39,630 bases of DNA from IMG/VR virus record IMGVR_UViG_3300045988_044422; one strand, written 5' to 3'. Positions 1,884-23,266 of the stretch are shown here, piece by piece. How positions within the stretch are numbered: the stretch's first letter is position 1; each line of letters starts with the position of its first letter. Source of the stretch: a virus. A program made the translations under genes and the position numbers. Under the pieces are notes generated by a model that saw nothing but the letters and a program-made list of their open reading frames with translations, was not told the DNA's origin and ran no database searches.

Positions 1884-2201
1884 ATGAAACCGATCGAACA
1901 AAGAATTGCTTGTGCGAAAGGAGAAATCCTGAACGCAATGGCAACAATCAGCACAGAACACGATCTGTCAGCGACAGTCATGGAAGGCGTGCTGGCTGAC
2001 ATACTGTCTGAAGTGAAGTCACAATCAAAGATGGAACTGCTGAACGCATACAACAAAGAAGTGAACGATGCACAACAGGAAATCAAGCAGCTGAAGGAAG
2101 AACTTGAAAAAGCGAAGACAGCAGCAAAGAAAACATTGAAGACCGAACCTGACACCGATCAGGAAGGAGGGGACGACAATGGCGATGCAGCTAATAACTG
2201 A
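1884..2201 (+). CDS. Hypothetical coiled-coil protein (tail module)
   Basis: AGGAGG RBS 7 nt upstream of the ATG. 105 aa with a heptad-like KQLKEELEKAK segment and an acidic tail. Confidence 0.55.
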   Translation: MKPIEQRIACAKGEILNAMATISTEHDLSATVMEGVLADILSEVKSQSKMELLNAYNKEVNDAQQEIKQLKEELEKAKTAAKKTLKTEPDTDQEGGDDNGDAANN

Positions 2202-3045
2202 CATAACACTGGAACTGACAGGCGATGAACGATTATATATGGCATCAGCGAAGCAGGGCGACAAGCGCACACGATTCATCAGGATTGCGCTGACGAATAA
2301 TGGCAAGGTATTCACGATCCCGACAGGGTACATCGTAATTGCGAACATAAAAAAGCCTGACAAACATTTCTGTTATAACGAATGCACAGTGACCGACAAC
2401 AAAGTCATGGTTGAACTGACAAATCAGGCACTTGCAGCAGCAGGAACAGCACACTGCGACATTGAGATCAGGGACGCACAAAACGTGTATGTGTTATCTT
2501 CGCAGGCGTTCACTATCGAAATTGAAGAAACAAACAGGAATGATGCTGCGATTGAAAGCTGCAACGAGATCACAGCACTGGAAAAGAAAGTGCAGCAGTA
2601 CATCGACAACATCGTTTCGACAAAGAATGACATCTTGTCAGTTGAAGCAGCGATGAAGGTTGCTGAAGCTGCCAGAGCATCGGCAGAGGTTGACAGGATC
2701 AATGCTGAAGCACGAAGGAAGAAAAGCGAACAGGACAGGGAAACTGCTGAAACAGCAAGACAACAGCAGCTTCAGATCATGCAGGAAGCGACAGGAGCAG
2801 CAAACAACGCAGCTTCTTCAGCAAATACGGCAGCAGGCGCAGCGAATACAGCGGCGGCACGCGCTGAAGCAACATACAAGTCACAGGAAGAATTGCAGAA
2901 GATGTATGAAAAGATGCTGGACATCAAGGGGGCAGTCGGAAGCACGATTGACGGCGGCACAGCGTTCAGCATTGATCCGATGACCTGTGACGGCGGCACA
3001 GCGTTCACAGCAGAAGAATGCGAAGCGGATGCAGGCACAGTGTAG
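2179..3045 (+). CDS. Baseplate upper protein (BppU N-terminal domain)-like tail fibre protein
   Basis: The N-terminus ITLELTGDERLYMASAKQGDKRTRFIRIALTNNGKVFTIPTGYIV...AHCDIEI resembles the BppU_N Ig-like domain. An Ala/Gln-rich coiled coil follows. The C-terminus carries a DGGTAF duplication. Confidence 0.6.
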   Translation: MAMQLITDITLELTGDERLYMASAKQGDKRTRFIRIALTNNGKVFTIPTGYIVIANIKKPDKHFCYNECTVTDNKVMVELTNQALAAAGTAHCDIEIRDAQNVYVLSSQAFTIEIEETNRNDAAIESCNEITALEKKVQQYIDNIVSTKNDILSVEAAMKVAEAARASAEVDRINAEARRKKSEQDRETAETARQQQLQIMQEATGAANNAASSANTAAGAANTAAARAEATYKSQEELQKMYEKMLDIKGAVGSTIDGGTAFSIDPMTCDGGTAFTAEECEADAGTV

Positions 3046-3060
3046 GAAGGAGGAAACACG

Positions 3061-3474
3061 ATGGCAACATGGACAGTCAAACCAAAGAAGGACACAACAG
3101 CGAACTGGAAGGTTTCAGGGCGCATCCTTGAAGTGAATGAATGGGGCGTTGAAGAAACAACATCAGGCAAGTACATATTGAGGATCGGAAACGGAAAAGA
3201 CAAGTTTCTTGATCTTCCAGCGGTCGTTGATACGCCGACACTTGAAACGATGTACAACACGATTCGGAACTTCAACAACAATATGCAGCAGGCGACATCA
3301 GCCGCGAACGCAGCAGCACAGTCGGCACAGCAGCAGGCAGCGGCAGCACAGGCAGGCGCGGCAGCTTGCAAGGACATCCAGAAGGGAATCAATTCAATGT
3401 CGGATTCTGCAACAGGGAAGAAGTATACGATCGGCGTTGAAGCAGGGCTTGTGTACTTGGAAGAAACAACATAA
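3061..3474 (+). CDS. Tail fibre-associated protein with Mtd_N / hyaluronidase-type N-terminal motif
   Basis: KKDTTANWKVSGRILEVNEWGVEETTSGKYILRIGNGKDKFLDLPAV matches the (T.A.W...L..GE.G.E.....K.GdG...f..LP) motif seen at the N-termini of phage fibre and Mtd proteins. Confidence 0.5.
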   Translation: MATWTVKPKKDTTANWKVSGRILEVNEWGVEETTSGKYILRIGNGKDKFLDLPAVVDTPTLETMYNTIRNFNNNMQQATSAANAAAQSAQQQAAAAQAGAAACKDIQKGINSMSDSATGKKYTIGVEAGLVYLEETT

Positions 3475-3489: not shown

Positions 3490-4746
3490 ATGGCAAGGCT
3501 TTATGTAGCAGACAAAGAAACGCTTGACGCTGTGAAGGCTGACACAACAGGAATACTGGCACAGCTTCAGGATAAAGATGGAAAATTCAGCAATGTCAAG
3601 CGATATGGAATCAAGATCAACAAGGCTGACAGCAATCCTGACACGCGCATCACATATCTGTATGACGCAGCAGGATTCACGCCAGCAAAGATGAACTTCA
3701 CAGACGGATCATTCGACTTCGGTTCATGGGGCGAAGTGTTCTTCATTAAGCAGAACAGACCAGTCATGCTGAAGGCAGACAGAACAGTTGCGTATGAGTT
3801 AAACCACACAGACCATTCAAAGAAGCTGGACGGCACTGCATCCGATGTCGGGGACGCATCAACGACACTGAATGCGATGTCTGAATTTCCTTTGATGTGG
3901 CTGTGCCAGTACGAAGTCGGAAACTATGAATATATCATCGTATCTGACACAAGAGTTGACAGCAACTACAACGCAGATGCATACACAAGAGAAGATGGAA
4001 GCGTTGCAGATCATATGTACATGCCTATGTACGGCGGCAGCTATGACGGCGCGAAACTGCGCAGCTTGTCAGGAAAGAAACTGGACTGCAACACGAACGC
4101 ACAGACAGAGATCAGCAGGGCAGCAGCAAACGGAACAGGCTGGACGATCATTTCATGGAGCAGAAGAAACTTGATCGAAAGCCTTCTGACATTGATCAGC
4201 AAGTCTGAAAACTATCAGGCGAAGTTCGGTCAGGGCGTATGTAGCACATATGTCAATGATTCATCAAAAGACTACGGAAAAGTTGTGACAGGAACACTGG
4301 ACACAAAAGGGCAGTTCTTCGGCTATAATGACGGAACACATGAAGTGAAAGTGTTCTATTGCGAAAAGCCATGGGGAAACCGCTGGGACAGACTTGTGGG
4401 CTATATCTGCGACAACGGAACAATCAAAGTGAAGATGTCGCCGCCTTATAACCTGACAGGAAAAGACTACATAAAAGTCGGAACAGCGTGCAAGACAGAA
4501 GGATGGCAGAAAGACACATTGATGACGCGCTATGGACGATTTGTCAAATCTGTCGGCGGCAGTGCTTCGACATATCGTTGTTGTTATTACTGGATCAACG
4601 TGACGATCGTTGCGGTCGCGCTTGTCGGCGGTCACACCAGCAACGGCGCGAACTGCGGTGCTTGCGTCAGCTTGAACAGCACTGCTGCGAATGCGTATTG
4701 GAACGTCGGTGGCTCGCCTTCTTGCGAAGAACCTTTGGCGGCATAG
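3490..4746 (+). CDS. DGR target protein: putative receptor-binding tail fibre protein with C-terminal variable region
   Basis: 418 aa. The last ~40 codons contain VR (4608-4715). WGNRWDRLVGY and the C-terminal GG...W..GG pattern are compatible with a C-type-lectin/Mtd-like fold. The gene lies in the fibre module. Confidence 0.85.
   Translation: MARLYVADKETLDAVKADTTGILAQLQDKDGKFSNVKRYGIKINKADSNPDTRITYLYDAAGFTPAKMNFTDGSFDFGSWGEVFFIKQNRPVMLKADRTVAYELNHTDHSKKLDGTASDVGDASTTLNAMSEFPLMWLCQYEVGNYEYIIVSDTRVDSNYNADAYTREDGSVADHMYMPMYGGSYDGAKLRSLSGKKLDCNTNAQTEISRAAANGTGWTIISWSRRNLIESLLTLISKSENYQAKFGQGVCSTYVNDSSKDYGKVVTGTLDTKGQFFGYNDGTHEVKVFYCEKPWGNRWDRLVGYICDNGTIKVKMSPPYNLTGKDYIKVGTACKTEGWQKDTLMTRYGRFVKSVGGSASTYRCCYYWINVTIVAVALVGGHTSNGANCGACVSLNSTAANAYWNVGGSPSCEEPLAA
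4608..4715 (+). repeat. DGR variable repeat (VR)
   Basis: 108 bp aligned without gaps to 4843-4950 (offset 235). There are 8 mismatches, and 7 correspond to TR adenines. Confidence 0.9.
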
Positions 4747-4760
4747 CCGCACAGGGGGAC

Positions 4761-4778
4761 AGGGGGAGCAATCCCCCT
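4761..4778 (+). promoter_or_regulatory. Hairpin downstream of VR (candidate DGR target-recognition hairpin/cruciform)
   Basis: Perfect 7-bp stem AGGGGGA/TCCCCCT with a GCAA (GNRA) loop. It lies 15 nt after the target stop codon and has no following U-tract. Confidence 0.55.
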
Positions 4779-4842
4779 TGAAGTGTAAGTAAAAAGAAAA
4801 ATTAAATAATAGGGATATTGTGTGCGCCTTCCGATGCTTCTG

Positions 4843-4950
4843 CGTTGCGGTCGCGCTTGTCGGCGGTAACACCAACAACGGCGCGAACTGCGGTGCTTAC
4901 GTCAACTTGAACAACACTGCTTCGAATGCGAATTGGAACATCGGTGGCTC
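4843..4950 (+). repeat. DGR template repeat (TR)
   Basis: Non-coding copy of VR. It holds 24 adenines and, read in the target frame, 8 AAC and 2 AAT codons. The invariant-looking copy sits 141 bp upstream of the RT. Confidence 0.9.
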
Positions 4951-5091
4951 TCACTCTTAACAATCATGGGACAATAACCTAATGCACACGATATTCCGCG
5001 CCACTTGGCGAAAGTTAAACCGAAGAAAGGGTTGTGCTAGTAGGGCGAAAGCCGTGAACGTGCAACAGGTGTTAAGAAGGAAACCTTTTGA
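4843..5091 (+). ncRNA. Probable DGR RNA (TR plus spacer preceding the RT)
   Basis: No credible ORF here. TR is followed by a 141-nt spacer. The spacer has a GAAA-capped helix (5044-5053) nested in an imperfect helix (5031-5066). The organisation matches TR-spacer RNAs of known DGRs. Confidence 0.5.
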
Positions 5092-6453
5092 ATGAAGACA
5101 TATAAACATATATTTGAAGAATTGCTGAAAGAAGAAAACATCACACAATGTTTTCACGATGCAGCAAAGCGCAAGACGACACGTCCCGAAGTCGCCAGAG
5201 TGCTGAAGGAAGAAAGAGAAGTCGGAAACGACAGACCTGAACCGCAATGTCTTCAGGAACATGTGAAAGCACTTCAAAAAATGCTGGAAGAAGAAACATA
5301 TCAACCACCAGAACATAAAAAGATGCTGATAAACGAATATAGCTGCGGAAAGGTCAGGGAAATCATAAAACCTGAATTTCAGTATGAACAGGTCGTGCAT
5401 CATTGCATCATAAAACAGCTTCAACCGATCGTACTTCATGGACTATATGAACACGCACTGGGAAGCATACCGAACAGAGGTTGTCACAGCGGAAAGAAGC
5501 AAGTTGAAAAGTGGATAAAAGGATATAAGGGAAAGAAGTTCTATATCCTGAAGGCAGATGTCCGACACTGCTTCGATACAGAAGACATTCGCGTAATTGA
5601 AACAAAGCTGAAACGCGTGATTAAAGACGAAAGATTTGTCAGATTATGCAGCACAGTCATGGAGCATGAAGCGACAATGAAGCCACCTGAATTTGATCGG
5701 GAATGGATCGAGGACGAACAATGGAAAGATACTGAATTTTTATCAGGACTTCCGCTTGGGTTCGTGACTTCACAATGGTTCACACAGCTGAACTATAAAG
5801 AACTTGATCATAAAATTGTTGAAGAGTGGAAGGAACTGGGCGGCGTTGACCATTCAATTCGATACGCGGACGACATTGTTGCGTTCGGAAGAAACAAAAA
5901 GAAACTTCACAGACTGAAAGATGTTATGTCGGAATATATGAAAAATGAAATGAATCAGAAAATCAAATACAACTGGCAAGTGTTCCGTTTTGAATATCCC
6001 GACAGGAAAGCACCGCCAGTCATTGACAAGAAGACAGGAAAAGAGAAACCGAAGACCAGAGGGCGTGCGCTGGACTTCATGGGATTTGTATTTCATTACA
6101 ATCGCACAACGCTTCGCAAATCAATCCTGAAGCGTGCGACAAAGAAGGCGCACAGAATCGCAAAGAAAGAGAAAGTCAACTGGTATGATGCTTCAGCAAT
6201 GCTGGCATCAATGGGCTGGTTTACACATACGGACACTTATGGCTTTTATGAAGATCATATCAAGCCATATGTCAATATAAAGCAACTGAAAAAGAAAGTC
6301 AGCAAGCATTCAAAGAAAGGAGTGAAGAACAATGATGTCAGAATGGTATCAGTCAGAAAGCATGGACAAGCCGACAGAGTGGGACACGACATCAAGCCCG
6401 ACAGTGGTCTATCAGCGAAAGAACATCGCAGAGCAGATCAGGAAGGGCATTGA
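5092..6453 (+). CDS. DGR-type reverse transcriptase
   Basis: Contains RYADDIVAFG (YxDD), the DGR-diagnostic LGxxxSQ motif (LPLGFVTSQ), GSIPNRGCHSG and KADVRHCFD. It lies directly downstream of TR. The lysine-rich C-terminal tail overlaps the next gene by 122 nt. Confidence 0.9.
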   Translation: MKTYKHIFEELLKEENITQCFHDAAKRKTTRPEVARVLKEEREVGNDRPEPQCLQEHVKALQKMLEEETYQPPEHKKMLINEYSCGKVREIIKPEFQYEQVVHHCIIKQLQPIVLHGLYEHALGSIPNRGCHSGKKQVEKWIKGYKGKKFYILKADVRHCFDTEDIRVIETKLKRVIKDERFVRLCSTVMEHEATMKPPEFDREWIEDEQWKDTEFLSGLPLGFVTSQWFTQLNYKELDHKIVEEWKELGGVDHSIRYADDIVAFGRNKKKLHRLKDVMSEYMKNEMNQKIKYNWQVFRFEYPDRKAPPVIDKKTGKEKPKTRGRALDFMGFVFHYNRTTLRKSILKRATKKAHRIAKKEKVNWYDASAMLASMGWFTHTDTYGFYEDHIKPYVNIKQLKKKVSKHSKKGVKNNDVRMVSVRKHGQADRVGHDIKPDSGLSAKEHRRADQEGH

Positions 6454-6622
6454 CGGAGAAAAAGACCGCACTGTCTATGTGTACAGCGAAAGGACTATGA
6501 CACAGGAAGAATATGCAAGACTTCAGGCAGAGCTTGAAAGTCCAGCAACAAAGATGATCATGCAGTCAATGTCATCAATTGAAATGAACGTGGCAATGAT
6601 GCAAGAAATGATGGAGGTATAA
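6332..6622 (+). CDS. Hypothetical protein upstream of XkdX-like gene
   Basis: AAAGGAG RBS then ATGATG. 96 aa. It occupies the slot that xkdW holds in PBSX-like elements, but no motif was verified. Confidence 0.55.
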   Translation: MMSEWYQSESMDKPTEWDTTSSPTVVYQRKNIAEQIRKGIDGEKDRTVYVYSERTMTQEEYARLQAELESPATKMIMQSMSSIEMNVAMMQEMMEV

Positions 6623-7407: not shown

Positions 7408-7725
7408 GTGGAGAAGTACAGCTATACAATACCAGCAAGAAGGAAGAAAAGACGCAAGAAGTCACTGACAAGCTGGATCATGGAGTTTTCAAAAAAAGTT
7501 GTGGTTGTCTGCGTGCTGCTTTACATCATCATTGAACTGTTTTCAGTAATAGCGATCTGGCACTTTGCAGACACATCGGTGCTGACCACACTGATCAGCG
7601 AAACATCTGAAGTGCTTCGCATGGGTGTGTTCGGGTACATGATAAAGGCAGGAATTGAGAACTGGCAGAAAATCAAAAAAGGAAAGCAGGAAAGTGAAAA
7701 CGAGGAAGGCGGTGCGAACGGATGA
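7408..7725 (+). CDS. Small membrane protein, possible holin/antiholin
   Basis: GTG start 7 nt after AGGAGG. Basic N-terminus, TM segment VVVVCVLLYIIIELFSVIAIW, and a second amphipathic/hydrophobic stretch. Confidence 0.5.
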   Translation: MEKYSYTIPARRKKRRKKSLTSWIMEFSKKVVVVCVLLYIIIELFSVIAIWHFADTSVLTTLISETSEVLRMGVFGYMIKAGIENWQKIKKGKQESENEEGGANG

Positions 7726-8198
7726 AAAATGCAGCTTTAATATTAAAAACAATTTATGATAATTTGCCGATGATCCTGACAATCATTGCGATTGTGGCAG
7801 GCATCGGAATCAAGGTCAGAAACTTCCTGAAGCAGTCAAAGGAAGACCAAAAGAAGCAGCTTCAGGAACAGGCAGACAAAGTCGTGGAACTGGTAAAAGA
7901 AAGCCTTCTGTCTATCGTATCAAAGGCAGAAAAGGAGTGGGGAAGCGGCACAGGAACAATCAAGAAGTCATGGGTGTGGGAACAACTTCAGGCACAACAG
8001 CAGAAGTTGACGGAATACATATCAGAAGGACTGATCGACAAAGACATGGTCGATGATCTGATTGAAGCGGCAGTTGAAGAACTGAACACTATTTTGAAAA
8101 AGAATCAGAAGGCTGCTGAAGCAGTCAAGCCGCCTGAAGAAAGGGAAGCGGCAGCGGTAGCAGCTGCGATTCAGGCGCAGAAGATACAGACGGAATAA
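7722..8198 (+). CDS. LL-H-family-like holin
   Basis: N-terminal TM segment (PMILTIIAIVAGIGI), then VSKAEKEWGSGTGTIKKSWVWEQL, which resembles the Holin_LLH core. It lies upstream of the endolysin. Confidence 0.5.
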   Translation: MKNAALILKTIYDNLPMILTIIAIVAGIGIKVRNFLKQSKEDQKKQLQEQADKVVELVKESLLSIVSKAEKEWGSGTGTIKKSWVWEQLQAQQQKLTEYISEGLIDKDMVDDLIEAAVEELNTILKKNQKAAEAVKPPEEREAAAVAAAIQAQKIQTE

Positions 8199-8510: not shown

Positions 8511-9320
8511 ATGGGAACATTATGCGGATGGGCTAGTATTGACGAAAGAGGAAAAGCAACAGGAGGACAGAAGGGCGATCAGACAGGTCGTGAAGTAAAG
8601 ACTGGAAACTGGTATGACTTCGGTCAGACAGTCGTGCTTCGTTTCAAGGATAGAAACAAGGCAGCGAAGGCGGCGACAGCGATGAAGCAGCTGTGCGCGA
8701 ATGACAATGTTGGATATTGTCAGGGACACAGAACTTCACTGTACACAGAACTTGAAAAGGTCGGCTGGAATCCAACAGAATTGAAAACACCTTGCGAAAC
8801 TGATTGCAGTGCGATGATGCCGCCAGTGCTTAAATGCGCAGGAATCAGCGTGTCAAAGGATATTTACACAGGCAACATGGTCAATGCTATTATGGCGACA
8901 GGAGAGTTTGAAAAACTCACAGGAAGCAAGTACACAGGCACAGGCGACAATCTTATGACTGGCGATATTTCAGTGGCAGAAGGCAAGCATACAATCATGG
9001 CACTGGAAAACGGATGCAACGTGTCAGGCGGCAACGGATCAGGAAGCGGATCAGGCAATAATCCAGCTGTACCATACGGAACAGCAAAGACAGCGACATT
9101 CACTGGATATGTGAACACAGGCGCACTGAATGTCAGAAAGCAGCCTGATCCAGATGCAGACAAACTTGTGTCATATCCTTGCATTAAGCAGAACACAGAA
9201 GTCGGAGTGTGCGGAAGTGCAAAAGCACCGAACGGCGCATTGTGGTATTACATCTATATTGACGGAGCAAAGGGCAAGAAGTACGGATATGTAAACGCAA
9301 GATACATCACAGCGAAATAA
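8511..9320 (+). CDS. Endolysin: peptidoglycan hydrolase catalytic domain + G/S linker + SH3b cell-wall-binding domain
   Basis: The N-terminal domain carries GGQKGDQTGREV and conserved Cys/His residues (catalytic family not assigned). A GNGSGSGSGNN linker follows. The C-terminal segment LNVRKQPD...ALWYYIYIDG...GYVNARYI is SH3b-like. Confidence 0.7.
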   Translation: MGTLCGWASIDERGKATGGQKGDQTGREVKTGNWYDFGQTVVLRFKDRNKAAKAATAMKQLCANDNVGYCQGHRTSLYTELEKVGWNPTELKTPCETDCSAMMPPVLKCAGISVSKDIYTGNMVNAIMATGEFEKLTGSKYTGTGDNLMTGDISVAEGKHTIMALENGCNVSGGNGSGSGSGNNPAVPYGTAKTATFTGYVNTGALNVRKQPDPDADKLVSYPCIKQNTEVGVCGSAKAPNGALWYYIYIDGAKGKKYGYVNARYITAK

Positions 9321-12918: not shown

Positions 12919-13296
12919 TTATTCAGTTTTATCCCAACCAACCTTCTTGACTAGCTGCTTCATATATTCTTTGATTCGTTCACGGCTTCCAGCTGGTAAA
13001 GACACATACATTTCAACAAGTGCCTTGTCAAAATCGTTCAAATCATACTGCGCACACAATTCATCAACGATTGTCTGCGGAAGGTCGTCAAACATTTCCC
13101 CTTCGCCATACATTAAATAATCATAATTCACATTGTATTCACGACAGATAGAAATTGCCATCTGATCAGTTAAGTTGTTCACACCTTTTTCGATTCTGGA
13201 AATAGTGGTTTTTGTTACACCTAACTTTTCCCCGAACTTTTCAAGAGTTAAACCAAGTGATTTTCGCACTTCGTTGACGCGTTCGCCATTTGTCAT
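12919..13296 (-). CDS. CI-like XRE-family repressor (125 aa)
   Basis: Starts at ATG 13296 with an AAGGTGGA RBS. HTH segment LTLEKFGEKLGVTKTTISRIEKGVNNL. It is divergent from the early operon. The longer 206-aa ORF extension is rejected. Confidence 0.8.
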   Translation of the reverse strand: MTNGERVNEVRKSLGLTLEKFGEKLGVTKTTISRIEKGVNNLTDQMAISICREYNVNYDYLMYGEGEMFDDLPQTIVDELCAQYDLNDFDKALVEMYVSLPAGSRERIKEYMKQLVKKVGWDKTE

Positions 13297-13335
13297 ATTT
13301 ATTCCACCTTTCTGTATATTTGCTTTTCTGATTGT

Positions 13336-13364
13336 AGAATAACACGACAGCAAGCAAAGGTCAA
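13336..13364 (-). promoter_or_regulatory. Candidate leftward (repressor maintenance) promoter
   Basis: On the - strand: TTGACC, 17 nt, TATTCT. It lies about 35-40 nt upstream of the repressor ATG. Confidence 0.45.
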
Positions 13365-13374
13365 TAAAAAAGTT

Positions 13375-13437
13375 ACCGTAAGCAACAAAAAACTGTTGAC
13401 AAAGTGACTGTAAGCATCTATACTGTAACTGTAAGCA
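13375..13437. repeat. Three direct copies of AC(C/T)GTAAGCA: putative repressor operators
   Basis: Copies at 13375-13384, 13407-13416 (inside the early promoter spacer) and 13428-13437 (just after the -10). Confidence 0.55.
13396..13424 (+). promoter_or_regulatory. Candidate rightward early promoter
   Basis: TTGACA (13396-13401), exactly 17 nt, TATACT (13419-13424). Confidence 0.6.
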
Positions 13438-13738
13438 ACAGAAGAAAGCAGGAAGAACGGATGAAGCGAGAGGGCGGCACGCAAGTGACATGGCGGTCAG
13501 GCTGTACGATAACAGACAGAGCGTGTGCAGAATAAACATGATCCGTCAAAGTAGTTGAAGAAAGCAGGAACATCAGGACAAGAAAGCAAAGTGTTCATAC
13601 TACTGGAAGAAAATGAACAGGTTGAGCCGATCAACACTTTACTCCTTAAACAAGAAGATGTTAAGCGGAAGAATCAATCGCGCGAGATGACACAGCACTT
13701 CTGTTTCTTACATTAAAAACCAGAAGGGAGCAGACAAG

Positions 13739-14209
13739 ATGAACGCAACAGTATCAACAAGGAAAAGAGCATGGCAGCTTGCAGACAAACTTTTTCCGAC
13801 AGATTACATGAAAGACGAACGCGACAGCCTTCGCGCTGGTTATCCAGTATTCAACACAACATCAACAGATGATAAATACACAGGCTTCCACATATCAGAC
13901 CTGAACACAGCACTTGAACTGAATATGGGAGCAGAAACAATCAGGATCAACATTGAGGATCAGGAAGCGGAGATCAAGAACAACTTCGACAAGCTGCTTC
14001 AGTATGTGAGCGACAAAAGAAAGTCAGCAGAACTTCACGAAAGACAGAAATACAACTATTACTGTGACAGACAGGCTGGCTGCTGGAACTGGACGAAGGA
14101 ACAGGATGAAGCATATCAGAAGGAATGGGACGACATCATCATTCAGATGCACGCATTGAAAGACCTTGAAAACGCGATGAACCTTGCAAGAACCAAAGGG
14201 ATCATATAA
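13739..14209 (+). CDS. Hypothetical early protein (156 aa)
   Basis: GAAGGGAG RBS. First sizeable ORF of the rightward operon. No motif recognised. Confidence 0.55.
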   Translation: MNATVSTRKRAWQLADKLFPTDYMKDERDSLRAGYPVFNTTSTDDKYTGFHISDLNTALELNMGAETIRINIEDQEAEIKNNFDKLLQYVSDKRKSAELHERQKYNYYCDRQAGCWNWTKEQDEAYQKEWDDIIIQMHALKDLENAMNLARTKGII

Positions 14210-15891: not shown

Positions 15892-16896
15892 ATGAAGAGA
15901 AGGAAGAAAGCTGTGTATATAGATTATGACTATGAAGCAGCATACCAGAAGATGTTGACTGACTTGGAAGAAGACAACATGTGCAGGATGCTGAATGAAG
16001 GCAAGGTCAGATCAATATATGCCACTAAGGAGATAAAGGCAGCAGAGCAGATGGATGTTGAAATATATCCAGAGTTCAGAAGAGGACAGAAAGAGCAGAT
16101 ACCAGACGAAGCAAAGCTGAAGAAGCAAAGACAGGCACAAAGAAATCTGAATGAGAAGAACAGCAGGAAGGAATGTGAACGGACGATCAATGCAAACTTC
16201 ACGGACAATGACATCTGGGGAACACTGACATATACAGACAACAACATGCCGAACAGCATGAAGGAAGCGCAGCACGATATGACGCTGTACATAGGACGAC
16301 TAAACTATGAGCGAAGGAAGAAGGGACTTGCAAAGCTGCGTTATGTGTATGTGACAGAGTGTTCAGACAAAGGACGCTGGCATCATCATTTTGTGTGCGA
16401 TGGCGACATGGGGCTGGAAGCGGTTGAAGAAAAGTGGAAGAAGGGGCGCAGGAATCAAGTGCGCAGGCTTCAGAAGGATGAACATGGACTGTCAGGAATG
16501 GCGAACTACATCACGAAACAGAAGCACCCTGAAAAGAAGGGCAAAGAACCGAAACCAGTTGAAAAGTATCAAAAGGCATGGAAAGCAAGCAAAGGACTGA
16601 AAAAGCCTGAAGTGAAGAAGAATCACTATAAATTCAAGCAGAAGGATGTTGACGAAATCGTCACAGGCAGATGCGATCTGGAAGACAAGCTGAAGAAATG
16701 GTATGCAGCAGACGGCTACAAGCTGACATCGTATGAAGTCAGATACAACAACATGAATGGCAGATTTTATATATACGCAAGGATGTATAAACAGCCACAG
16801 GAAGGAGAAAAGATTGACAAAGCAACAAGTAAGATTAAGCAGAAAACAGCGAAGAAGAAGGCAAAGAAGAAGACAGCTGCACGATGCAGTACATAA
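15892..16896 (+). CDS. HUH-superfamily rolling-circle replication initiator (Rep)
   Basis: Motif 1 WGTLTYTD, motif 2 RWHHHFVCDG (HUH), motif 3 GMANYITKQ (YxxK), in canonical order and spacing. Confidence 0.65.
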   Translation: MKRRKKAVYIDYDYEAAYQKMLTDLEEDNMCRMLNEGKVRSIYATKEIKAAEQMDVEIYPEFRRGQKEQIPDEAKLKKQRQAQRNLNEKNSRKECERTINANFTDNDIWGTLTYTDNNMPNSMKEAQHDMTLYIGRLNYERRKKGLAKLRYVYVTECSDKGRWHHHFVCDGDMGLEAVEEKWKKGRRNQVRRLQKDEHGLSGMANYITKQKHPEKKGKEPKPVEKYQKAWKASKGLKKPEVKKNHYKFKQKDVDEIVTGRCDLEDKLKKWYAADGYKLTSYEVRYNNMNGRFYIYARMYKQPQEGEKIDKATSKIKQKTAKKKAKKKTAARCST

Positions 16897-17644
16897 CTTC
16901 ATCAGGACAGCAAAGAACTTTCTTCAGCGAAAACCGAAGACGGCAGCAGCAATCCTGATCACATTCATCACAATATATGTGTCGGTAATGCTGGGATTTG
17001 CGATCGGCGACATGATCAGCGCAAAAGGAAAGACGGAAACAAAACAGGAAAGCGAAGCAGAAGAACAGACAGAAAGTGACTTGGATGCAGATGAAGAATA
17101 TCCATTCAATACAATGTCACAGGATTGGAGTGGCGAAGACATGGAAGGATTCTGCTATCACGAAATATCAGACGAATGCAAGGCAGCAGGCGGCAAGTTT
17201 CCAGTAATGGCGCAGATATATACATACATTGTTTGTCAGAACTATGGTGTTGACTATGAAATGGTGTTCGCACTGATCGAACAGGAAAGCGAATGCAACT
17301 GGAACGCTTCAGGCGATGGCGGCACATCATGGGGGTATATGCAGATAGCGCAGAAATGGCACAAAGAAAGAATGCAACGCCTGAACTGCACCGATCTGAC
17401 AAATCCATACCAGAATGTGACAGTCGGCATTGATTACCTGAAGGAGATTCAGGACAGCTTGCAGGAAGTTCCGGAAGATGTGCGTCCATATTACGTTCTG
17501 GCGGTCTACAACTACGGAGCAGCAGGCGCAAAGGAAAACTTGTGGAATCATGGTGTGTATAAATACAGCTATAACACAGCAATCATGGAAAGAGCAGCGC
17601 AGCTGAAGGCAGAGAAAGAAAGACAGGAAATGAAGGAGGAATAA
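16814..17644 (+). CDS. Membrane-anchored lytic transglycosylase (SLT domain)
   Basis: ALIEQESECN (catalytic E-S), GYMQI and VYNYGAAG motifs. N-terminal Arg-rich segment and TM AAAILITFITIYVSVMLGFAIG. TTG 16814 after AGGAAGGAG is the preferred start. The ORF is open from ATG 16757. Confidence 0.8.
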   Translation: MTKQQVRLSRKQRRRRQRRRQLHDAVHNFIRTAKNFLQRKPKTAAAILITFITIYVSVMLGFAIGDMISAKGKTETKQESEAEEQTESDLDADEEYPFNTMSQDWSGEDMEGFCYHEISDECKAAGGKFPVMAQIYTYIVCQNYGVDYEMVFALIEQESECNWNASGDGGTSWGYMQIAQKWHKERMQRLNCTDLTNPYQNVTVGIDYLKEIQDSLQEVPEDVRPYYVLAVYNYGAAGAKENLWNHGVYKYSYNTAIMERAAQLKAEKERQEMKEE

Positions 17645-18722: not shown

Positions 18723-19041
18723 AAAAGCACATCAAATCACATTGCAGGAACTTGGGATCATACCGAAAGAGCCGAAGCGAAAAGAAGAAGTCAGAAAACA
18801 ATATGCTTTTCCTTGCGGCGGTTGCGTGTGTAGCCACTGCGCAAACAATGTGGAAACGCCAGACACATGCACAGGAGAAATGAAAGAACCTTGCTTCACA
18901 TGTGACTATTGCAAGCATTATGACGGAAAAGGAACAGACAGGCGACTTCAAGATTGTGACAAATACATTGTGACGGACGAACACGCGAGAAGGTTAAGAA
19001 GGCACATGAAAATAATAAACAGGAGGAAAGCACATCAATGA
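18709..19041 (+). CDS. Cys-rich (probable Zn-binding) small protein
   Basis: CGGCVCSHCANN...CTGEMKEPCFTCDYCKHY cluster of 10 Cys residues. Confidence 0.5.
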   Translation: MQDDKKAHQITLQELGIIPKEPKRKEEVRKQYAFPCGGCVCSHCANNVETPDTCTGEMKEPCFTCDYCKHYDGKGTDRRLQDCDKYIVTDEHARRLRRHMKIINRRKAHQ

Positions 19042-19811
19042 AAATAATAGCAGTAATGAATCAAAAAGGCGGCATCGGAAAGACAATGACCGCAGCAGCT
19101 ATCGCCTACATAATGGGCGAAGAAAAAGAAAAGAAAGTGCTGATCTGTGACGCGGATCAGCAGGGCAACATATCACTTCTTTACGACAGGTTTGATCCTG
19201 AAGGACAGGGAATGTCAGAATTGCTTGAAAATCATCAGGCAGCAGGCGGCGCATATTCGACAACAGACCTGATCCAAACAACACCATATGGAAATATTGA
19301 CATCATACCAGCGAACGGATATTTGATGCGAACAAACATGACGCTGCTTCAGGAAGAAGGAGAAGATCAGATTCTTCGATTTGCAGCAGCGATGAATGAA
19401 GTCAGAACTATATATGATTATTGCATTGTTGATTGTGGTCTGATCATGGACATGACAGTCACAAATGTGATGATTGCAGCAGACCTTGTGATTGTGCCTG
19501 TCAAGATTGGCGGCTTCGAGATTGAAGCCGCTGCAAACATGGACAGTCAGCTGACATCGTTCAGAAGGATAAATCCTGACATTCGCATGAAAGTATTGAT
19601 GACGATGCGCCAGAAGAACCAGACGACACTTCAGGTTGAAGAATGGCTGAAAACACAGTCAGGACACGATTGCTTTGCGACAGCGATCAGGCGATCAATA
19701 ATCGCAGAGAAGTCAACAGTCGCACAAGTGCCGCTTCCAAAGTTTTCAAAAAACTGCATCGTGACGCAGGACTATCGTGCAGCAGCATATGAATTGATGA
19801 AAGAGGTGTGA
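19038..19811 (+). CDS. parA: ParA/Soj-family partition ATPase
   Basis: Deviant Walker A NQKGGIGKT at the N-terminus, CDADQQGN, and Walker B-like IVDCG. Confidence 0.85.
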   Translation: MKIIAVMNQKGGIGKTMTAAAIAYIMGEEKEKKVLICDADQQGNISLLYDRFDPEGQGMSELLENHQAAGGAYSTTDLIQTTPYGNIDIIPANGYLMRTNMTLLQEEGEDQILRFAAAMNEVRTIYDYCIVDCGLIMDMTVTNVMIAADLVIVPVKIGGFEIEAAANMDSQLTSFRRINPDIRMKVLMTMRQKNQTTLQVEEWLKTQSGHDCFATAIRRSIIAEKSTVAQVPLPKFSKNCIVTQDYRAAAYELMKEV

Positions 19812-22741: not shown

Positions 22742-23266
22742 ATGTACGAACATTTCACAAAGACACAGCAGCAGTTTGATGTCAGACGCGGCGATGTGTA
22801 TTATATCAACAACAACAGAGGACAGAGAGGAAACGAGATCAGGAAGGACAGACCAGCCGTCATTGTGTCGGCTGACTTCCTGAACAAACACAGCGGCGAT
22901 GTGGTCGTTGTGTTCCTGACATCACAGCCGAAGAAAGACATGTCAACACATGTGACGATCAGAACAACTGGAAGAGCGTCGGAAGCATTGTGTGAACAGC
23001 CGACAACAATCAGCGTGGAAAGATTAAACAACAGAATCGGCAGCGTGACAGAAAGAGAAATGCAGCAGATAGACATTGCGCTTCAGATAGCTTTGAATCT
23101 GGATGCAGGAGCAAACACACAGCCAGAACCCGAAAATCAATCGGGGGGGGCATCACACGGCAGCGATGCAGTGATTGAAAGCGAACACGATTGTATTATA
23201 AGACTTGAAACGGAGCGCAACACATACAAGAAACTTTATGAAGACATTATGAACCGAAGGAGATAG
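22742..23266 (+). CDS. PemK/MazF-family toxin-like protein with ~55-aa C-terminal extension
   Basis: RRGDVYYI......G.E.RKDRPAVIVS....N.....VVVVFLTSQ......HV.I.......ALCEQPTTISVERL...IG matches the PemK/MazF core. A G8 tract lies in the linker at 23143-23150. Confidence 0.7.
   Translation: MYEHFTKTQQQFDVRRGDVYYINNNRGQRGNEIRKDRPAVIVSADFLNKHSGDVVVVFLTSQPKKDMSTHVTIRTTGRASEALCEQPTTISVERLNNRIGSVTEREMQQIDIALQIALNLDAGANTQPEPENQSGGASHGSDAVIESEHDCIIRLETERNTYKKLYEDIMNRRR

Follow-up and report, generated by a model that had tools for sequence, protein, structure and literature searches.

Positions 3490 to 6453 of the IMG/VR virus record IMGVR_UViG_3300045988_044422 raise two questions: whether the pair of repeats and the reverse transcriptase (RT) gene found there make up a working diversity-generating retroelement (DGR) aimed at a tail protein, and how such an element might copy its template when no Avd accessory protein accompanies it. 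The window, by which we mean the whole 39,630-nucleotide stretch that was analysed, supplies all coordinates given below, and every feature of the cassette itself lies on the plus strand. The element is a DGR, with all of its named structural parts present: a target gene (3490–4746) that carries a variable repeat (VR) near its end, a non-coding template repeat (TR), and an RT gene (5092–6453). We further hold it highly probable that this DGR is intact and currently active, that it belongs to the accessory-free class with the order target–TR–RT, and that it lies among the tail-fibre genes of a temperate gut phage of siphovirus type that infects Lachnospiraceae.

The repeats themselves are unambiguous. 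A repeat search returned one long direct repeat in the region, 4608–4723 against 4843–4958, with 91% identity and an offset of 235. Its 108-bp core defines the VR (4608–4715) and the TR (4843–4950). The VR lies inside a coding gene at its 3′ end, covering codons 373–409 of the 418 in the target open reading frame (ORF) and ending 31 nt before the stop codon, while the TR is a separate, non-coding copy adjoining the RT gene, 96 nt beyond the target stop and 141 nt ahead of the RT start. The two cores differ at exactly eight positions, every one of them at codon position 1 or 2. At seven of the eight the TR has an adenine (4868, 4875, 4899, 4905, 4914, 4931 and 4940), read in the VR as C, G, G, G, G, T and G, respectively. 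Given 24 adenines in 108 nt, the hypergeometric probability that at least seven of eight mismatches fall on TR adenines by chance is 8.5e-5. The remaining mismatch is a non-A difference (T4922 in the TR, G4687 in the VR), which changes Ser to Ala. It was found in the window genome alone among the 31 cassettes introduced below, and probably reflects a simple point mutation or else an infrequent RT error at a base other than A.

Read in the VR frame, the TR has eight AAC and two AAT codons, plus ACC, TAC, ACT and ATC. All 24 adenines fall at codon positions 1 or 2 and none at position 3, in contrast with the remainder of the target ORF, which has 108 third-position adenines. Adenine substitution can convert none of the TR codons to a stop, and it can reach ~1.5e14 peptide variants over 14 codons, corresponding to residues 382–385, 388, 392, 394, 396–398, 401, 403, 405 and 406 of the target protein. 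An earlier reading of this DNA, made from the letters alone and referred to here as the original prediction, had proposed a DGR on the strength of this repeat pair and the RT gene beside it. Repeat search and alignment reproduced its coordinates for the pair; our counts agree with it on the eight differences (seven at TR adenines, all at codon positions 1 or 2), the 24 TR adenines and the AAC and AAT codons; the gaps of 96 and 141 nt on either side of the TR were confirmed, and the TR and VR translations are identical to those it gave.

The RT gene encodes 453 amino acids with an RVT_1 domain and matches phrog_1423 (‘reverse transcriptase’). As had been predicted, it carries the catalytic YxDD motif as YADD (aa 258–261, nt 5863–5874) and the motif 4 sequence [LIV]GxxxSQ as LGFVTSQ (aa 222–228, nt 5755–5775). 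In the PDB, the sequence closest to it is that of the Bordetella DGR RT (8ub7_A, E 2.6e-8), ahead of the group II intron RT GsI-IIC at E 4.9e-5. An AlphaFold model (mean predicted local distance difference test score, pLDDT, 82) again has 8ub7_A as its best fold match, with a template modelling (TM) score of 0.86 normalised to target length and E 2.8e-16, compared with ~0.60 for group II RTs. The RT thus belongs with the DGR RTs, a placement that the original prediction had made and that is borne out here by best-match searches of sequence and fold. When phage genomes were searched by tblastn, the RT matched Faecalibacterium phages, LBR48, crAss-like phages, BIP-1, VHML and ANMV-1, all of which we take to be recognised DGR carriers; the highest RT identity among deposited phage genomes was 38%.

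One could still suppose that the repeats are the remnant of an ordinary duplication or recombination event and that an RT of some other class (retron, group II intron or defence) lies nearby by chance. The best NCBIfam models for the RT would seem to invite that idea, being those for group II intron RT (73.8 against a cut-off of 300), Drt3a (34 against 200), Drt2 (33.6 against 390) and retron RT (30.8 against 235), but these scores are all far below the cut-offs, and non-DGR models head the ranking because the library gave no DGR model match. Both PDB searches put a DGR RT first, the spacer between TR and RT has no intron RNA domains or retron msr/msd and matches a single Rfam family, RT-18, and the VR/TR mismatches are A-specific (pooled over the 31 cassettes, P ~1e-174). 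This explanation is effectively refuted.

Whether the element has been at work is best judged from its relatives. A protein-guided scan of IMG/VR with the RT as query gave 40 loci, 30 of which have the same VR/TR pair at the same spacing, and our population set therefore comprises 31 cassettes, the window plus these 30 related viral contigs; the evidence from it is comparative, not experimental. The 31 cassettes have 31 distinct VRs but only 10 TR variants. TR-adenine sites take 344 of the 385 VR/TR mismatches, and of the 41 others, 21 sit at repeat positions 1–2, where the edge of the repeat is ragged. Every one of the 24 TR-adenine sites varies in the VR, and mean column entropy in the VR is 1.42 bits at these sites versus 0.13 bits elsewhere. 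The heterogeneity specific to template adenines that the original prediction had expected from read mapping was examined on these cassettes in place of reads, and variation is indeed concentrated at TR-adenine sites. The TR, by comparison, is near-invariant over the 31 loci, and its variants touch adenine sites in L019 and L021 only.

Two further observations speak to the direction and timing of transfer. Silent TR polymorphisms at the non-A sites 22, 52, 55, 58, 61, 64 and 103 have their counterpart in the cognate VR, and the entropy at these sites is the same in both repeats; since the lineages diverged, each VR has therefore been copied anew from its own TR, and copying is ongoing. In one very close relative (L008), the 591 bp upstream of the VR are 100% identical to the window, whereas the VR differs at 10 of 108 positions, nine of them at TR adenines. 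The same target–TR–RT layout recurs in cassettes whose RTs are only 30–42% identical, with A-biased mismatches wherever a VR/TR pair could be located: 9/9 mismatches at adenines in Butyrivibrio phage Closwp03, 13/13 in Faecalibacterium phage FP_Epona (both cultured phages) and 11/11 in the uncultured gut phage MT835666. On these sequence comparisons, transfer from TR to VR is one-directional and ongoing in the lineage, and the element is an intact DGR that is demonstrably active at the lineage level.

Activity of the lineage does not by itself speak for the copy in the window, which might be a recently inactivated relic of a lineage that diversified earlier. Only one copy of this genome is at hand, it has the non-A mismatch T4922/G4687, and some relatives (L021, L034 and L045) have lost adenines from their TRs. 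Yet the RT ORF is complete, its catalytic motifs are preserved and it is 99% identical to its relatives; the window TR keeps all 24 family-conserved adenines, and the spacer RNA, the helix that brackets the TR and the hairpins downstream of the VR (all described below) are intact. With differing VRs also present in very close relatives, we consider a relic very improbable.

The adenine losses just mentioned are a curious observation in their own right. The TR of L021 (IMGVR_UViG_3300045988_027320, 5752–5859) is down to 14 adenines from the usual 24; at ten adenine positions that are invariant in the other loci it has G or T. The TRs of L034 and L045 (5766–5865) show losses of the same kind when set beside the sister loci L042 and L043. 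These cases look like an overwriting of the TR by mutagenised cDNA or by the VR. Overwriting of this sort, if it occurs, would erode the diversifying capacity of the element.

What, then, is being diversified? The 418-aa target protein found no match in Pfam, NCBIfam or PDB sequence searches, and its sole sequence-library match is in PHROGs (phrog_5302, ‘tail protein’, E 5.5e-81). AlphaFold (AF2), given 53 homologues, predicts its structure with a pLDDT of 89.6. The top PDB match in a Foldseek search is TaqVP (5vf4), a DGR variable protein of Thermus aquaticus, at E 5e-11, and the only significant PDB matches are three TaqVP chains (E 5e-11 to 3e-10); next come FGE-type lectin-like domains of EgtB/OvsA at a non-significant E of 0.3–0.5, and Mtd itself is not among the fold matches listed. 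The TaqVP alignment extends over the whole model (~385 aligned columns, probability 1.00), although sequence identity is only 12–14%, the TM score is ~0.45–0.49, and TaqVP is a cellular rather than a virion protein. Among viral models in BFVD, the target resembles a ‘tail collar fiber protein’ and crAss-like tail fibres, and it is 84% identical to a protein of Myoviridae sp. ctBvM24. We therefore assign the C-terminal domain of the target, as modelled, a DGR-type (C-type-lectin) fold, in line with the lectin-like fold that the original prediction had anticipated.

The homologues also show how the repeat fits this domain. Within the VR their consensus is VALVGGxCxxGAxCGAxxLxLxxxASxAxWxxGA, where the ‘x’ positions are the TR-adenine codons. 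The scaffold residues that separate these positions (G, C, A, L and W) show conservation of 90% or more among the 53 sequences. Cluster sizes (3720 members for the target, and a likewise large 2160 for the RT) were not used as evidence of hypervariation.

From the fold and the gene order it is reasonable to suppose that the target forms a receptor-binding tip and that its diversification would bring about tropism switching, as the original prediction had proposed. An active DGR could also serve another end, in which the target is an accessory fibre of the tail or collar whose ligands are variable glycans (such as a capsule), mucus or other gut surfaces, and variation tunes adhesion or tracks phase-variable host surfaces without switching tropism. 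The closest viral structures are named ‘tail collar fiber protein’, and two other proteins encoded upstream, the separate BppU_N protein and the 551-aa Tal protein with its long C-terminal extension, could each be the main receptor binder. In F. prausnitzii phages, moreover, DGR targets include Hoc-like decoration proteins that have been proposed to bind mucus (PMC5883640). The fold of our target is nonetheless a lectin of the Mtd/TaqVP type and not an Ig-like Hoc, and its gene closes the structural part of the fibre module, a position also taken by mtd in BPP-1 and by the Mtd-like target in FP_Epona. We regard the accessory-adhesin role as unlikely.

Two features of the cassette, an RT-18 spacer RNA and a helix that brackets the TR, go beyond the original prediction, which also did not remark on the lack of Avd. 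In the prototype DGR, that of BPP-1/BIP-1 (mtd–avd–TR–brt), an avd gene stands between the target and the TR. Here the interval between VR and TR has no room for avd, no Pfam match to the Avd family was found among the 63 window ORFs scanned, and an HRDC accessory was likewise not found among them. Among the small ORFs neighbouring the cassette, none is basic, a membrane protein excepted. A 96-aa ORF (6332–6622) shares its first 122 nt with the 3′ end of the RT gene, where FP_Epona and LBR48 also have a small overlapping ORF; its product has weak similarity to the FP_Epona counterpart (E 0.001) and none to that of LBR48. A role for it as a substitute for Avd seems less likely, since it is acidic (isoelectric point 4.5) and, in our reading, occupies an XkdW-like position in the fibre module.

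The RT itself is larger than its Bordetella counterpart. Compared with bRT (328 aa), to which it is ~20–25% identical, it is 125 aa longer, with a low-confidence insertion at about aa 185–215 and a basic, predicted disordered C-terminal tail (aa 410–453).

The spacer between TR and RT contains a structured RNA. Positions 4999–5079, ending 12 nt before the RT start, give a full-length match to the Rfam model RT-18 (RF03021) at 47.3 bits versus a gathering score of 41.3. The match begins with a 4-bp stem-loop, P1 (CGCC-ACTT-GGCG, 4999–5010), followed by AAA at 5011–5013 and then by the nested helices P2–P4. RT-1 to RT-19 were described as motifs near RT genes, of which only RT-10 was tied to a DGR, that of BPP-1, and the others were the subject of speculation (Weinberg et al., PMC5737381). 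RT-18 also matches the TR–RT spacers of Lactobacillus phage LBR48 (59 bits), in which no VR was located, and of MT835666 (41.9 bits), and it falls below threshold in distant loci. The FP_Epona spacer instead has the related RT-4, at 124 bits. In all these cases the matches fall exactly within TR–RT spacers (L047:3358–3474 for FP_Epona, L049:702–777 for LBR48, and L048:2416–2493), and RT-4, RT-17 and RT-18 have a common 3′ domain (GAAAU...UAGUA...GAAA...AUAGAA).

Immediately 5′ of RT-18 lies one arm of the longest inverted repeat in the region. Its 5′ arm, GGGATATTGTGTGC (4812–4825), is upstream of the TR, and its 3′ arm, GCACACGATATTCC (4984–4997), follows a conserved block, AACCTAAT, at 4977–4983. 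Pairing of 4812–4825 with 4984–4997 would leave the whole TR looped out. A helix in the same position but of different sequence is present in eight of the eight lineages examined, for example AAGGGCAC/GTGCCCTT in Closwp03 and a perfect 12-mer in FP_Epona. In a hand-registered alignment of these lineages, 86.6% of the cells in the 14 pairs are paired and 11 pairs show compensatory changes; none of 500 shuffles was as good, and no slid register came close. A minimum free energy fold of 4805–5091 recovered the helix unaided. By contrast, an automated alignment of the spacers (MAFFT followed by RNAalifold) mis-registered P1 and recovered only eight pairs.

The arrangement of these parts is familiar. 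In Bordetella, an avd:spacer (Sp) duplex, a short stem-loop, and adenosines engaged in A-minor contacts form the ‘cPRT Stop’, which is needed for cis-primed reverse transcription, marks the end of the cDNA, and was reported to be conserved among Avd-containing DGRs (bioRxiv 10.1101/2023.10.23.563531). In the window, P1 and the AAA follow directly after the 3′ strand of the bracketing helix, so that a long helix between the region upstream of the TR and the spacer, a short stem-loop and a run of adenosines resemble the ‘cPRT Stop’ layout in the same order. The likeness does not extend to the whole RNA: the window spacer matches RT-18 and not RT-10, and no stem-loop directly follows the TR, which is where BPP-1 has its Avd-binding stem-loop.

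A second long-range pairing suggests where cDNA synthesis might start. The strand TCTTAACA (4955–4962), 5 nt past the end of TR/VR identity, is complementary to TGTTAAGA (5070–5077), which lies at the 3′ end of RT-18 and ends in A5077. Each of the eight lineages has a stem of 6–8 bp at the corresponding anchored position, with differing sequences and, in our own reading, with a 3′ strand that always ends in A. After the model of TR117–129:Sp47–56 and Sp A56 in BPP-1, the two strands could form a template:primer duplex, with 4955–4962 as candidate template and 5070–5077 as candidate priming strand. When RNAduplex was applied to the TR flanks, shuffled sequences were beaten only in the window and in FP_Epona; duplex energy alone is thus uninformative, and we relied on positional covariation for that reason.

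Possible signals for cDNA integration lie at the 3′ boundary of the VR and downstream of it. At the VR 3′ boundary (4707–4726), the GC-rich block CGGTGGCTC (4707–4715) is shared with TR 4942–4950, and past it the two sequences diverge, GCCTTCTTGCG in the VR versus TCACTCTTAAC in the TR. By analogy with BPP-1, this boundary may correspond to the IMH and IMH* (initiation of mutagenic homing) sites. Two hairpins follow. Hairpin 1 (GCGGC-ATA-GCCGC, 4738–4750) begins 22 nt after the VR and contains the target stop codon TAG (4744–4746); it shows a compensatory change in L031 (GCAGC/GCTGC), and equivalent hairpins of other sequence are present in other lineages. Hairpin 2 (AGGGGGA-GCAA-TCCCCCT, 4761–4778, predicted free energy -13.4) lies 45 nt after the VR and is preceded by a second G5 tract at 4754–4758. 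Both of its arms are longer together in L035, and the layout G5...G5-loop-C5 recurs in all seven other lineages with sequence downstream of the VR. In BPP-1, a GC-rich hairpin with four loop nucleotides has to follow closely on the VR, and the mtd stop codon lies inside it (PMC3240598). Neither loop in the window (ATA or GCAA) fits the GRNA consensus of the literature, and the distance of hairpin 2 from the VR exceeds the published 4–34 bp. No T-run follows hairpin 2, which is therefore not a typical terminator, and a terminator scan of 4500–5300 found nothing. The two G5 tracts and single C5 tract (4754–4778 and their equivalents in L032, L034, L046, L047 and L048, across RTs 30–40% identical) could form two alternative hairpins, with a role either in DNA, for target recognition, or in RNA.

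Putting these elements together, we propose the following course of events. An RNA spanning ~4812–5079 would be made, probably by read-through of the late operon. In it, the 14-bp helix formed by 4812–4825 and 4984–4997 would loop out the TR, with the stem-loop, the A-run and the RT-18 domain next in line. The RT would bind this RNA and cis-prime cDNA near the 3′ edge of the TR, where 5070–5077 on 4955–4962 is the candidate primer, and would copy the TR faithfully except opposite adenines, stopping before the bracketing helix. The cDNA would then replace VR 4608–4715, guided by the shared GC-rich 3′ block and the hairpins downstream of the VR. As an outcome, 14 codons would be re-randomised in the C-terminal domain with the C-type-lectin fold, most likely on the ligand-binding face of the tail protein. 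The priming site, the stop site, Avd independence, receptor binding and a change of host range are what we infer within this scheme.

Several points weigh against this account or temper it. The window genome itself is one sequence with only seven A-site differences. The labels ‘tail protein’ and ‘tail collar fibre’ are family and automatic names only. For the bracketing helix, both arms were selected visually at positions that correspond between lineages, a procedure that favours pairing. The candidate priming duplex is short and, taken alone, weakly significant (Fisher P 0.06), and its order along the RNA is unlike that in BPP-1, in that the candidate primer strand lies 3′ and not 5′ of the stop-helix strand. 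No promoter-like site for a separate TR transcript appeared in a scan of 4500–5300, and we accordingly propose no separate TR promoter. Finally, with no Avd or HRDC gene among the 63 ORFs, the Bordetella mechanism cannot be transferred wholesale.

A more specific model takes up that last point. Tentatively, and at what we judge to be somewhat less than even chances, the element may work as a naturally Avd-independent ribonucleoprotein, in which the enlarged RT (with its ~30-aa insertion and basic tail) and the RT-18/RT-4 RNA replace bRT plus Avd. The ‘cPRT Stop’ would be retained, and the primer strand would now sit where the spacer ends on its 3′ side, so that A5077 would prime on the duplex 4955–4962:5070–5077. 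If that were true, RT-18 and RT-4, so far without an assigned function, would be DGR priming or scaffold RNAs, and one protein together with one RNA of ~270 nt would make up a minimal natural DGR.

How does the cassette compare with those already described? It shares with BPP-1 a VR at the 3′ end of a lectin-fold tail-fibre gene, an AAY-rich TR, the RT motif [LIV]GxxxSQ and the ‘cPRT Stop’ layout discussed above (bioRxiv 10.1101/2023.10.23.563531), and, less certainly as target-site signals, the GC-rich shared 3′ block after which VR and TR diverge and a stop-codon hairpin (PMC3240598). As a target–TR–RT cassette without an accessory gene, it conforms to ‘Architecture A1’ (target gene–TR–RT), which accounts for 29% of 372 curated DGRs and from which a form of mutagenic retrohoming that does without Avd has been deduced (Wu, Gingery, ... 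Zimmerly 2018, PMC5758913). A close parallel from a cultured phage is FP_Epona (Cornuault et al. 2018, PMC5883640), whose tail fibre genes, Mtd/FGE-like target, non-coding TR, RT, overlapping small ORF, XkdX, holin and endolysin follow the same plan. No Avd homologue was found in its DGR (PMC5883640). Like the window, FP_Epona is a temperate phage of gut Firmicutes with mismatches at TR adenines (all 13 of its own) and a helix bracketing the TR (a perfect 12 bp in its case); unlike the window, it is of myovirus type with P2 J/I-like baseplate genes, its RT is 31% identical, and its spacer is longer (223 nt) and contains RT-4. LBR48 and MT835666 have RT-18 above threshold in the same position together with the same bracketing helix. 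The uncultured-virus record Myoviridae sp. ctBvM24, already mentioned for its target, has an RT that is 82% identical to ours.

By gene content, the window reads as a whole, circularly permuted genome of a temperate siphovirus-type phage, with genes for a terminase, tail tube, chaperone, tape measure, Dit and a large serine recombinase, as well as ORFs of portal and capsid size. Upstream of the target lie the Tal gene (17–1672, Prophage_tail), the BppU_N baseplate/fibre gene (2179–3045, plus strand, Pfam E 4.9e-14) and, just before the target, a small ORF of 137 aa (3061–3474, plus strand, phrog_38006). The original prediction had placed the target among BppU-like and Mtd_N-like fibre genes. 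The BppU part of that statement holds, but the Mtd_N match (PF18454) in ORF 3061–3474 is sub-threshold (E 0.023, at 15 bits where the cut-off is 26.3), even though it spans model positions 1–36 of 37; this ORF may represent an Mtd N-terminal module encoded as a separate protein. The lysis genes are downstream, as stated there, with a holin-like gene (7722–8198) and an endolysin gene (8511–9320) that come after three small ORFs; the small ORFs 3′ of the RT include XkdX.

Among genome records, the nearest is a contig of 40.6 kb from a metagenome-assembled genome (MAG) of Blautia wexlerae, which encodes an RT 100% identical at the protein level, and more distant cassettes lie inside long Lachnospiraceae contigs. 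The assignment to a Lachnospiraceae host is made because of this MAG binning and these relatives. A megablast search of 3490–6453 against 50,697 phage records gave no match.

Elsewhere in the genome, a RAGATH-8 RNA (RF02687) at 13435–13707 on the plus strand is a very strong full-length match, at 290 bits where the gathering score is 86.7. This RNA occupies a divergent region between a helix-turn-helix repressor-like ORF on the minus strand (12919–13539), which it overlaps by ~100 nt, and ORF 13739–14209 on the plus strand, a location presumed to be the lysis–lysogeny switch. An SLT transglycosylase domain protein is encoded at 16757–17644, and the early region encodes a ParA/AAA_31 ATPase (19038–19811, plus strand, E 6.4e-34) and a PemK/MazF-type toxin domain protein (22742–23266, plus strand, E 1.2e-25).

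DGRs in gut phages are well documented, so that the existence of one here is unsurprising. Both the Avd-less architecture and gut-phage DGRs are already published, and the window element adds a genuine, well-formed example, whose value lies in being clean and well populated. Its dozens of near-identical genomes, which differ almost only at 24 programmed nucleotides, offer a series in which tail-tip sequence can be set against host range, in phages of Blautia and other Lachnospiraceae that are abundant gut commensals. The most interesting point is how cDNA is primed and stopped in an element that lacks Avd yet keeps the RNA layout essential in Bordetella, and the RNA features described here make this directly testable. 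The element is therefore a compact candidate for studying both steps and for building simpler mutagenesis tools, and it points to a likely role for the orphan Rfam motifs RT-18 and RT-4.

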